From Octopus vulgaris (lineage: Eukaryota), in contig OX597815.1 in NCBI GenBank assembly GCA_951406725.2, positions 119,784,001-119,848,000 of the forward strand: a stretch of DNA of 64,000 nucleotides, read 5' to 3'. Every line of letters begins with the position of its first letter. Within the stretch, counting starts at the first letter, position 1. The notes under the pieces are model-generated. The model was not told the DNA's origin. It saw nothing but the letters and a program-made list of their open reading frames with translations, and ran no database searches. Position numbers and translations under genes: made by a program. Positions 14,624 through 62,996 of this stretch are shown in pieces.

Positions 14624-16019
14624 AATATATATATATATATATCACCATCGTCATAGTCGTTTAATATCCACTTTCCTTGCTGGCATGGGTTGAACAGTTT
14701 GACTGAGGACTGGCAAGCTAGGAGGTTGCACCAGGCTCCAATCTGATCTGGCAGAGTTTCTATAGCTGGATGCCCTATATATATATACTTTTTATTAAAG
14801 CTGAAAAAACAAACTGTTACTTAGAGTTTCACACAACCATTTATCAGACAGCTGTACTATCACAACTGTCTGAAGAATGGTCATGTAGAACAATGAATAA
14901 CAGATTGTGAAGATTTTGGGGTCTTAATAAATTATATATTTCTCTACCTTTGGTATTCCAGTACTATTTATTGTTCACCTTGCTTTGCATCTGCGTGCTT
15001 ATTTGTGTGTGTGTGTGTGTGTGTGTGTGTGTGTGTGTGTGTGTGTGTGTGTGTGTGTGTGTGTGTGTATGTGTGTGTGTGTTTGTATGTGTACATCAAC
15101 CATCATCATCAACATTTAATGTTTGTGTTCCATTATGGACAGTTTGACTGAAAACTGGTAAGTTGGAGAGCTGCACCAGGATCCAGTCTGATTTGGCAGG
15201 GTTTCTACAACTGGATGTCCTTCCTAATGCCAAACACTCCAAGAGTGTAGTGGGTGCTTTTTACGTACCACCAGCATGGGTGCCTGTTATGAAACACTGG
15301 CTTCGGACATAGCTATAATTTCACTTGGCTTGACAGGTCTTCTCAAGCATAGTATATTTATTTCATTATTGCCTACAGTGGGGTAAATATAGAGAGGACA
15401 AACAAGGACAGACAAAGGGATTAAGTCAATTACATTGACCTCAGTGTGTAACTGGTACTTATTTAATCAAACCCGAAAGGATGAAAGGCAAAGTCGACCA
15501 TAGCAGAATCTTTTCTACTCTAGGCACAAGGGCCAAAATTTTTGGAGTGGGGCCAGTCGATTAGATCGACCCCAGTATGCAACTGGTACTTAATTTATCA
15601 ACCCCAAAAGGATGAAAAGTAAAGTTGGCCTCGGCGGAATTTGAACTTAGAAGGTAACGACAGACGAAATACTGTTAAGCATTTCGCCCAGCTTGATAAT
15701 GTTTCTGCCAGCTCACTGCCTTCCTCAAGCATATTGCTAAAGGTCTGGGATGACAAAGGAGTTAACAGTTATGTTATAAACTTCATTGCCTTACAACTGT
15801 TTCTGCTATAAGGTGCATTGCACTTATAGTTGAGTACTTCAAACATAGAGTACAATTTATCTGGGAATGGTTTGTGAGAGGGGTTTGTATAGTGATTGTT
15901 GATGTAGTTCATGCATGGCTTCTTTTTATTGAAATGGTAAGCGTGTCATCTCATTCTTCTAATATATCTGTATGTATGCATATATTTATGCATGCATGTA
16001 TGTATATATGTGAGAATGT

Positions 16020-16900
16020 GTATGTCTGTGTTTGTGTTACCTTGTCTTGACATCACACAATAGTTGTGGGTGTCACTACCACACAAGTGGTGTCATTTAT
16101 CTCCAGTCTTCCAAGAAAACCTCTCCAGCTATGGGAAAAGATTGTTGACAAGAAGGGCGTCCAGGCATAGATAATCAGTTTTAATAAGCTTTGTCTGACA
16201 TATACAAGCATGGAAAAGTAGACATCAAAACAATGATGATGACTATGATGATAACAGTGATGAGGATATATATATATATATATATATATATATATATATA
16301 TATCATTTAATGTACACAGTATGAAGATATGAGCTACTAATAGTTTCTTGCTTTGGAGACACATGTCTTGGCAGATTTTTACAATACACCTTGTATCTTC
16401 TAGCTCTTAGCACTCTCACAGCTCATATCTTGTGTCTCTATACTTTGTACATTAAATGATACCTATCTCTCACTGGACAGAGTACATTTTTTTATTGATC
16501 TTACCTTAACTAAACAGTAAACTATATATATATATATATATATATATATATATATATATATATGCTAGCATGGAGAACGGACATTAAACGATGATGATGA
16601 TGATGATGATATATAATAATTGTCCTCACCATAAGCATCATCATAAGTATCCTCATCACCGTTATCATAATAGTCATCATCATTGTTTTGATGTCTACTT
16701 TTCCATGCTTGCATTTGTCAGGCAAAGCTTATTAAAACTGATTATCTATGCCTGGACACCCTTCTTGTCAACAGTCTTTTCCCATAGCTGGAGAGGTTTT
16801 CTTGGAAGACTGGAGATGAATGACACCACTTGTATGGTAGTGACACTCACTTACAACTATTGTGTGATGTCAAGACAAGGTGACACAAACACAGACATAC
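16020..16900. repeat. Local inverted duplication (arms 16020-16268 and 16648-16900) with a nested short inverted repeat
   Basis: Arms are highly similar reverse complements. Inner inverted repeat at about 16303-16333 / 16420-16460. Confidence 0.85.
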
Positions 16901-17108
16901 ACATTCTCTCTCTCTCTCTCTCACACACACACACACACACACACACACACACACATACAGATAGATAGATAGATAGATAGATATTCAAAGTGTATTCCAT
17001 TAGGAACGTATTAGAGTACAAAATAGAGCTTGTTCACCCTTAGAATTACCAAATAGCCAGTAGTATTCAAAGTCTAGGCTTAGGCATTCATCGTGTGTGA
17101 AAAATAAA

Positions 17109-17296
17109 AAGGAGTACATTTAGACAGCCATTTAATAAATACTACACCTGTTTCGATACAACATAGATCCACATATACACAGGATTTAAATTATACAAGT
17201 AAACCATTGATTAATTTAAATCCTGTGTATATGTGGATCTATGTTGTATCGAAACAGGTGTAGTATTTATTAAATGGCTGTCTAAATGTACTCCTT
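17109..17296. repeat. Perfect 84-bp inverted repeat with a 20-nt spacer
   Basis: 17109-17192 is the exact reverse complement of 17213-17296. Contains a hammerhead-like 3' half, CGAAAC AGGT GTA. Confidence 0.9.
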
Positions 17297-61270: not shown

Positions 61271-61622
61271 GTGTATAATCAGTACTTGTAGTAAAGTACG
61301 ATTTTACTTTGGAAGCATGCTGTTAGACTTATCTAAAAGAATTTCTATCCATTACTCAACGTTTAGTGATAAGAATAAATGTAACAGTGCTGGACTCAGT
61401 AAATTAATTTGGAATCTAAAAGACCACAATGAACAATTTAATTTAGAATGGTTGATTCTCTCAATCTCGATACCTTATGACAAAGGCAAGGAATTCTGTC
61501 TTCTCTGAAATTCTGAACTATTTTTCATTATTTTTTCTAAAAATCCCCTAGTAAACACGGTTATAGAGTGTGCATATCGATGTAAACATTGGCAAAAACA
61601 CACCTTTAGTTCATATAAGTAA
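61271..61622 (+). pseudogene. Penelope-like GIY-YIG endonuclease C-terminal fragment with an in-frame TGA at a conserved Cys
   Basis: FYFGS...KRISIHYSTF...SAGLSKLIWNLKD...LEWLIL...PYDKGKEFCLL[TGA 61506-61508]NSELFFII...LVNTVIECAYRCKHWQKHTFSSYK*. Confidence 0.85.
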
Positions 61623-61830
61623 TCTCTGATATTATATATAATTTAATCATTAATTTTCTTTTTATATTTAACATTCACTAAAAAAAAAATATCCCTCCTC
61701 TTTCTATAGGCTACTTCTGACATTATATCATATAATGTTTTTTTCAAACAATATTAATAGCATTCAGTAAAACACTATAGATATCCATCATTTTCTGTTA
61801 AAATGTCTTATTGATGAGTTTCATTTCTTC

Positions 61831-61916
61831 ACTTCCCTGAAGAGAAGATTACATTGCTTTACACCATTTATTCCTTTGGAATAATATCAGTGAAATCTTC
61901 GAAACGTGTCGGAAGT
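61831..61916 (+). ncRNA. Type I hammerhead ribozyme motif (canonical core)
   Basis: ACUUCC CUGAAGA GAAGAUU...AAUCUUC GAAA C GU GUC GGAAGU. 6-bp stem I, 7-bp stem II and a GUC cleavage triplet. The downstream segment recurs at about 54101-54154. Confidence 0.88.
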
Positions 61917-62996
61917 AAAAGTATTTGAATTATACCTGTGTTAAATTCCATTTATTTATTCATATATATATATATATATATATACACACACACACACACA
62001 CACACACACACATATAAATAAAAAATACACATTAAGTACAGGACATCACCAACAAGTGAAAAATATGTAAACACTCCAAGAGAAGATAACCTGCTCATGA
62101 GTTTTCAACTGTTTTACTACTCTCTATTTGGTACTGTCAACACACACACACATGCACACACACACACACACACACATGCACACACACACACACACATACA
62201 TACAAACACACACACACACCCATACCAGCATGGAAGGCAGATGTTAAACGATGATGATGACATATATATATACTAAGTTGAAGAATGGATGTAACCATGA
62301 TATCCTATGATCTGAAGAGCAAGCCTTCTTTACTTGTATTACCTTATAAATTGTACAGTAGTATATATAATTCTAACATATGCACACTAATACAAACTTG
62401 TAAAACAATTTATTATACACTAAAATAAATTGTTTTCCTGTGATGTTGGCTGCAAAACAATTGCAATCTTATGAATATCAACTGATGAAATAAATATACT
62501 CATCTCATACCTCCTGAATTTCTATATATTTTATATATGCGTGCGAGCGCGCGCGCACGTGTGTGTGTATATATATATATATATATATATATATATATAT
62601 ATATACACATATATATGTATATAGCAGTTGAAATATGTTTGGGATATATTTGGCCATCACTACACCCATATTCATTGCTGTTTGCTATAGAAAAGAATTC
62701 TCACTTTAGGCAACTGTCATTTTAAGACATTGTCTGACAGTAGCGGTGAATGTATTTCTAGCTTCATGGTTATCATCAGCACCATGTACTACATGAGAGA
62801 CATGCTTTGATACTGATTCACTAGAAGGAAAAGAAGGTTTCCAAAGACATTTCAAGACTGTCTCTGAACATCTAGTGCCTAAAATGACAATTATTTGCAA
62901 TAACAGCATTGAGCATGGCCATTGTGTGGGTAAAATATGCCTCAAACATACTTCAACTGGTCTAAATATTTGTTCACAACACTGCTTTCACATGCC

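Follow-up and report, generated by a model that had tools for sequence, protein, structure and literature searches.

We analyzed a 64,000-nucleotide stretch of Octopus vulgaris DNA (assembly GCA_951406725.2, contig OX597815.1, positions 119,784,001 to 119,848,000), referred to below as the window, in which an original prediction made from the sequence alone had listed 13 groups of hammerhead ribozyme motifs and read them as at least ten families of non-autonomous retroelements, mostly fold-backs in (TA)n microsatellites. The window consists of animal DNA rich in AT and in microsatellites, and interspersed repeats occurring twice within it make up at least 20 kb of the 64 kb. It contains hammerhead motifs, remnants of reverse transcriptase (RT) and nuclease coding sequence joined to two of the hammerhead families (B and J), copies whose 3' ends point toward (TA)n, and head-to-head pairs of copies with a one-sided tail of 23-100 bases. 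These sites are very probably the 3' ends, consisting of a hammerhead-bearing pseudo-long terminal repeat (pseudo-LTR) and a tail, of many families of Penelope-like elements (PLEs), at least some of them belonging to the Hydra clade, that are 5'-truncated and mostly decayed.

Hammerhead motifs in the window

A strict descriptor of the type I hammerhead gave six matches at a score of at least 6, compared with 0.50 ± 0.73 (maximum 2) in 100 block dinucleotide shuffles of the window. A relaxed descriptor, composed after the sites had been seen and tolerating U3-A8, a single change in the core, an additional base after A9 and a minimal helix III, gave 12 matches, 10 of them at a score of at least 5, compared with 0.34-0.36 (maximum 3) in two sets of 200 shuffles. 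This 12- to 30-fold excess confirms that the motifs are not at chance level. Rfam returned no hammerhead family among the best 150 of 171 window matches, nor in two local scans to E = 10; the matches listed are sub-threshold microRNA and small nucleolar RNA similarities driven by microsatellites. Genome annotation probably undercounts such relics because Rfam misses their ribozymes.

Nine of the 13 groups have a whole motif and two have half of one. The estimate of about ten families in 64 kb is a fair one, but the core is unaltered in only five. Judged by the features of the minimal PLE hammerhead (type I, conserved core, tiny palindromic helix III, extra base after A9), eight groups were recovered by scan and one by hand, the two half motifs share the pattern in part, and the groups at 24144 and 39236 lack it. 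A canonical core with all helices is present at 20189 (plus strand, 20193), 32855 (minus strand, 32925), 48933/49261 (minus strand, 49007; plus strand, 49266) and 61831 (plus strand, 61837). The motif is whole with a variant or decayed core in family A (20420/24380, together with a copy at 14790, each having a core change), at 24681 (U4C), at 47494 (U3-A8) and at 48563 (A6U). The motifs at 24681 and 48563 represent related families, C and R, and the 47494 family (G) has a second copy, matched at 50810.

The copy at 20189-20264 (plus strand) is a solo hammerhead found by both scans, with neither a fold-back nor (TA)n beside it, and the hammerhead is not its lowest-energy fold. A second solo copy, at 19115-19174 (plus strand, with (TA)n just downstream), has an intact core and a decayed helix II; it is absent from both scans and was identified by hand, and its helix III is identical to the one given for Hydra-1_oBim in File S2 of Craig et al., 2021 (PMC8557442). 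The half motifs are those of family B (21038/56704), with a clear 3' half and a degenerate core, and family D (30310), with U4C and no helix I. The two unconfirmed groups fail both scans, lie outside any local inverted repeat and are single-copy in the window, helix II being absent at 24144 and U16.1 at 39236. Scan matches at 12991 and 52639 lie outside every recognised family and may be due to chance.

Penelope-like coding sequences

The window also contains RT/nuclease partners that the original prediction had overlooked. A reading frame at 55692-55985 matched three database proteins, one of which had 21,747 relatives at E ≤ 0.001. Using the 150 of these relatives that were returned, mapping by tblastn, and a profile built from 12 full-length relatives among the top matches, we placed their coding sequence at three positions in the window: 54191-56845, 61290-61616 and 34616-35071.

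The first position (54191-56845, plus strand; tblastn E 1.5e-101; matched by all 153 relatives used) is a decayed, near full-length element of family B, consisting of a terminal repeat, a broken open reading frame (ORF), a degenerate hammerhead (about 56660-56722) and a second terminal repeat, with (TA)n on its 5' side and (CT)n on its 3' side. The ORF (about 54335-56342) encodes an RT followed by a C-terminal nuclease and covers profile positions 1-701. The terminal repeat is 55 bp long (54211-54265 and 56785-56839, 89% identical), and the length between terminal repeats is 2655 bp. The 3' end of this element matches the hairpin at 21038, a family B fold-back (20863-21088, minus strand) that has the 3' half of the motif and a 58-nt tail and is 73-82% identical to it.

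The second position belongs to a 5'-truncated element of family J (61290-61961, plus strand), in which a nuclease remnant (61290-61616; profile E 8e-18) lies 220 nt upstream of an intact type I hammerhead (core 61837, the top match of both scans), followed by a short tail and (TA)n. Another J copy (54103-54152, plus strand; 90-92% identical to 61906-61984) is truncated within the hammerhead and then runs into (TA)n. At 54080-54191 the family B element stands immediately behind the (TA)n closing this truncated copy, a nested arrangement in which the same microsatellite has been used twice. The third position (34616-35071, minus strand; profile E 4.6e-14) is a linker/nuclease remnant of a Hydra-clade element with no clear hammerhead downstream. 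Compared by eye, 31 of 43 residues are identical to Hydra-1_Obim, and three database relatives are 27-43% identical over the same region.

Hydra elements are shorter than 3 kb, have canonical hammerheads and are almost always found in (TA)n; one family is from Octopus, Hydra-1_Obim of Octopus bimaculoides, which has a hammerhead as well as the (TA)n preference (Craig et al., 2021; PMC8557442). Family B falls below 3 kb and has the single ORF of RT then C-terminal GIY-YIG nuclease. A canonical hammerhead near the 3' end is present in family J and degenerate in family B; J copies end at (TA)n, and B starts at (TA)n and ends at (CT)n. Hydra is defined by RWK, DKT, a CxCX5C linker, CxxC and CxH, together with the lack of DKG. 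These motifs were found, using slightly relaxed patterns (RW, CxC-x-C linker), in all 12 aligned full-length relatives, and the decayed B copy in the window keeps CxH alone exactly. The label Nematis, considered for the partner element, was dropped in favor of Hydra.

The predicted Penelope-like origin is supported by RT and C-terminal nuclease remnants at three places, two of them directly upstream of a hammerhead-type motif. The proposed linking of each family to an RT/GIY-YIG element succeeded for B and J, 2 of about 11 families.

Fold-backs and (TA)n adjacency

Fold-backs are present in six of the 13 groups (20420/24380, 21038, 30310, 32855, 47494 and 48933/49261), so the statement that many of the motifs lie in fold-backs stands and the statement that most do fails. 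The 3' ends of both arms point outward. At least four TA units were found within 16 nt of 17 of 24 homology-defined family ends, compared with a background of 3.6%; the ends were picked by hand and the cut-off was set post hoc (16 of 24 at 15 nt). A crude test of the distance from each motif to the next (TA)n was weak, with 6 of 12 motifs within 200 nt (p = 0.05-0.11) and 10 of 12 within 400 nt (p = 0.003-0.013).

In the family F fold-back (32589-33106, minus strand), an inverted arm, a spacer with an intact hammerhead (core 32925), the other arm and a tail of about 97 nt follow one another between two long (TA)n runs. Family A has fold-backs at 20347-20549 (plus strand; decayed core at 20412, a 66-nt tail, then (TA)17) and 24331-24524 (plus strand; decayed motif, (TA)n on either side, 85% identical to 20345-20560), as well as an older pair at 14783-15001 (plus strand) in which both copies start about 12 nt upstream of the core. 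The family G fold-back (47247-47586, plus strand; U3-A8 core at 47497) has (TA)n on either side, and a lone G copy (50726-50870, minus strand) that is 92% identical to its arms terminates in (TA)16. The family D fold-back (30133-30537, plus strand), flanked by (TA)n runs and with a 46-nt tail, has its hammerhead-like motif without helix I on the minus strand. A family H fold-back (17103-17325, plus strand), absent from the original list, has the 3' half of a hammerhead in each arm.

The family R copy at 48467-48643 (minus strand), a minimal hammerhead with an A6U core (48594), has no fold-back and ends at a long (TA)n. Self-comparison of the window revealed further R copies at 20584-20779, 60097-60256 and 58328-58385 (all minus strand) and 12332-12397 (plus strand), and A6U is present in all three copies retaining that position. 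The related family C has a minimal hammerhead with a U4C core (24711) at 24576-24770 (minus strand) and a second, truncated copy, also from self-comparison, at 26356-26486 (plus strand).

The symmetric terminal inverted repeats of a miniature inverted-repeat transposable element (MITE) are not seen in these fold-backs: an additional 23-100 bases are present on one arm, and these sequences are also found in unpaired form (50726-50870, 56640-56845) and attached to an RT ORF. It is very improbable that the fold-backs are MITEs or by-products of cruciform repair at (TA)n in which the motifs arose by chance, a reading that is largely refuted by the ORF link and the excess of motifs over shuffled sequence, although hammerhead-free inverted duplications on long (TA)n do occur at 16016-16904 and 31923-32523 and other repeats adjoin (TA)n as well. 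These two duplications (94% and 92% identical, respectively) are of ordinary flanking repeat DNA and may have arisen when (TA)n cruciforms were repaired by fold-back, or in the course of assembly as artefacts.

Several other features of the window involve (TA)n or fold-backs. A (GAT)n-tailed, hammerhead-free family (5534-62244) reaches (TA)n within 12 nt in 6 of 11 copies. An old fold-back at 39936-40149 ends at (TA)n and contains what looks by eye like a heavily decayed hammerhead; another at 53709-53922 (68%) is flanked by (TA)n runs and has no recognisable hammerhead. A 95-bp sequence present twice (30575-30671 and 31228-31322) faces outward into (TA)n at both ends of a 750-bp segment and could be another Penelope-like end. 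The segments at 22825-24096 and 40510-42330, the second broken by a repeat resembling a short interspersed element (SINE), look by eye like decayed mariner-type transposons.

Family X and the question of non-autonomous units

Family X is a head-to-head pair at 48648-49525 with arms 93% identical, composed of a forward copy (49013-49525) in the order U-V-hammerhead(49266)-X and an inverted copy (49017-48648) in the order hammerhead(49007)-X-extension-U. The inverted copy has as its tail the 42 nt with which the forward copy opens (40 of 42 identical). The implied unit is about 570 bp long, and no frame inside it is open over 66 codons. The full-length B element shows the same terminal redundancy, with a 2-kb ORF where X has about 200 nt. 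Family X looks like an ORF-less unit and is slightly more likely than not to be non-autonomous.

The original prediction saw the whole population as non-autonomous. Only family X supports an ORF-less unit: families B and J are joined to RT/nuclease remnants, the 5' ends of families A, C, J and R vary from copy to copy, and the short copies are accounted for by heavy 5' truncation. Most sites are likely to be truncated 3' ends of PLEs. It is somewhat unlikely that the majority of families are genuinely non-autonomous, as units a few hundred bases long that resemble retrozymes or SINEs and use a Penelope-like RT/nuclease in trans. Against this reading stand the coding remnants of B and J and the variable 5' ends, and self-comparisons of the window show no head-to-tail hammerhead array. 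The terminal redundancy of family X does fit, as do the three motif-retaining copies of family R, which begin 45-75 nt upstream of the core, and the depth of R, about 100 times that of the X 3' end in sequencing run X1; retrozymes have also been proposed as PLE derivatives (bioRxiv 10.64898/2026.07.22.740005). One contig of run X7 spans U-V-hammerhead and another X-extension-U, but both come from one run, among the 32 listed of 73,505 contig pieces, and since each joint is supported by a single contig we did not use the joints as evidence.

Contigs from four runs placed on 48466-49525 numbered 28,903, 27,727, 11,284 and 5,301, and family R was the deepest part of this region in all four. In run X1, summed contig depth was 68,000-80,000 at the X 3' end and 3,700-6,400 over the hammerhead, a more than tenfold drop. 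Because summed contig depth is not a copy number and contigs matching both arms were divided between them, we read the depth solely as many copies with a 3' bias.

A metagenome scan for the R/C-type motif returned 14 loci, eight of them distinct after collapsing seven with identical flanks. Canonical and U4C cores are both present, and the core CCGACGA occurs in three of the eight. At four of the eight distinct loci the minimal hammerhead lies within a fold-back (L001 3941-4126, L008 3844-4001, L012 2849-3304 and L014 430-641), on contigs that are probably animal host DNA. None of the loci is similar to the window by blastn, and the fold-back over a minimal hammerhead is therefore not special to the octopus genome. 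Viral contigs scanned with two family motifs gave no matches.

Origin of the head-to-head copies

PLEs are typically truncated at the 5' end, with an inverted truncated copy next to them and a tail of 30-40 bp on one side (PMC8557442). In the mechanism that we favor, the GIY-YIG nuclease of the element would cut both strands inside (TA)n, and each cut end would prime reverse transcription close to the RNA's 3' end, with two alternative start sites accounting for the tail on one side. After stopping early, the two complementary DNAs (cDNAs) would be joined head to head. Any activity of the hammerheads would be in the parent transcript, as dimers or aided by protein, and those in scattered copies are probably inert passengers. 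We rejected the idea that the cleaved RNA is the template, since none of the copies has a clear start at the predicted site of cleavage.

An inverted pair would also result if a single cDNA, held up by the hammerhead structure, turned back on itself and served as its own primer. Turn points no more than about 75 nt from the motif suit this route, although the clustering may be an artefact of counting motif-bearing copies only; several hairpin centres are small palindromes (as in the fold of 20400-20455); and the long arm contains the short arm in families A, D, F and H, for which self-priming is possible. Against this route, the arms of family G resemble each other no more closely (89-91%) than either resembles the distant copy (92-93%). 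Family X does not fit, because each arm has sequence absent from the other and neither contains the other, requiring two cDNAs rather than one strand folding back. As an account of the fold-backs in general, self-priming is unlikely.

Several observations weigh against the reading of these sites as 3' ends of partly Hydra-clade PLEs. The ORF link holds in only 2 of about 11 families (B and J), and the minimal motif of families R and C is a different one; these two may be non-autonomous or members of another clade. Targeting of (TA)n, as originally predicted, holds for the family ends given above and is not specific: (TA)n is touched by 13 of 22 hammerhead-family segments and by 33 of 84 other repeat segments (Fisher p = 0.15). 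Pfam gave nothing above threshold for 21 window frames or for relatives P0001-3, 4, 5, 11, 14 and 26, and the labels RT and GIY-YIG are accordingly based on motifs and PMC8557442; a PDB search with relative P0004 also found no match. Hydra-type proteins, the only queries used, detected no coding remnant in the 14 metagenome loci. The supplement of PMC8557442 does not contain six short motifs of the window, a negative weakened by line breaks in that file, and the exact families may thus be uncatalogued.

Ribozyme activity, double-stranded RNA and the host

In predicted lowest-energy folds of the monomers, helices I and II both form at 61837, 49266, 49007 and 47497, form in part at 32925 and 24711, and are absent at 20193, 19119, 48594 and 20412. 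It is doubtful that these copies supply self-cleaving RNA, as had been suggested: most of them stand alone as monomers whose helix III depends on dimers, and many cores are mutated. Self-cleavage is unlikely because helix III needs a partner in the same transcript, because the inverted arm is predicted to pair over and mask the ribozyme, and because minimal PLE hammerheads are slow even as dimers (PMC4209133) and changes at U4 and A6 lower activity (PMC3088659). U4C and A6C are natural low-activity variants in PMC3088659, the main text of which does not contain "A6U".

The predicted fold of 48630-49525 (-482 kcal/mol, z = -41) supports the proposed potential for long double-stranded RNA (dsRNA), and the formation of such dsRNA upon read-through is a sound prediction. 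Octopus is reported to be exceptional for hyper-editing and exceptionally rich in dsRNA-forming loci, and Penelope is the massively edited repeat of the long interspersed element type in lizard (PMC5625713). A link with adenosine-to-inosine editing is the most interesting idea that the predicted dsRNA raises. It is quite unlikely that family X (about 570 bp, ORF-less) and the SINE-sized family R, with its fixed A6U, are very numerous non-autonomous Penelope derivatives that keep the hammerhead as a fold recognised by the RT and whose head-to-head hairpins of 150-550 bp provide a notable share of the dsRNA for octopus hyper-editing. If the hairpins were major ADAR substrates, or if X or R were non-autonomous, a known transposon class would be tied to cephalopod RNA editing.

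That these elements seed introns is a conjecture, as no host gene or exon was identified in the frames tested, which is not a full gene search. A CpG-retaining, apparently unique stretch after an AG dinucleotide (39131-39350), which contains the unconfirmed 39236 motif, could be a host exon, and two frames from it gave no significant protein match.

Comparison with known systems

The window represents known biology, a published pattern (PMC4209133, PMC8557442) with new unannotated members, and its weight is modest: about ten Penelope-like relic families are packed into 64 kb. Among the freely readable literature, we found no survey of octopus hammerheads, and hammerheads, Penelope-like elements and octopus appear together in PMC8557442 alone. 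A study of O. vulgaris (PMC13282606) reports 31 recently active Penelope-like families, and its main text does not contain the word "hammerhead".

Cervera and de la Pena (2014; PMC4209133) describe genomes with many divergent families of minimal hammerheads, most of them single motifs that probably derive from truncated elements, with hammerhead pairs 100-700 bp apart on opposite strands and a U3-A8 core. The window motifs resemble these metazoan PLE pseudo-LTR hammerheads in being type I, with a tiny palindromic helix III, an extra base after A9 and the U3-A8 variant, and differ in U4C (family C) and A6U (family R), which the available parts of that paper do not name. Family X fits the non-LTR retrozymes (PMC7229834; bioRxiv 10.64898/2026.07.22.740005), hammerhead units of a few hundred bases without an ORF and proposed PLE derivatives; the absence of coding capacity holds for X and fails for B and J. 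Retrozymes form head-to-tail arrays with canonical hammerheads and abundant circular RNA, whereas the window copies are single or head to head and known from DNA alone.

Compared with the Hydra clade (PMC8557442), the window elements share the length below 3 kb, the single ORF of RT and C-terminal nuclease, the 3'-end hammerhead, the (TA)n target and, in the relatives, the diagnostic motifs. An inverted 5'-truncated copy is also known from one Hydra family, and the hammerhead style of family A and of the 19115 copy matches File S2 of that work. The window families are other and older than the Hydra set described there, most are without an ORF link, and the motif of R and C is more minimal.

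The purified PAc protein, from a Poseidon PLE of Anolis, cuts and extends both target strands and prefers AT-rich DNA; reverse transcription starts at two internal sites bounding the tail, and hammerhead cleavage is dispensable for insertion in vitro (Frangieh et al., 2024; PMC11167929). PAc belongs to another clade, and its hammerhead overlaps the ORF start, whereas those in the window lie 220-330 nt past the ORF end. As with PAc, the target is AT-rich, and cutting and extension of two strands with two RT starts would account for the tail. The head-to-head pairs are a trace in the genome that agrees with the priming on two strands observed in vitro, and family X favors two cDNAs over self-priming.

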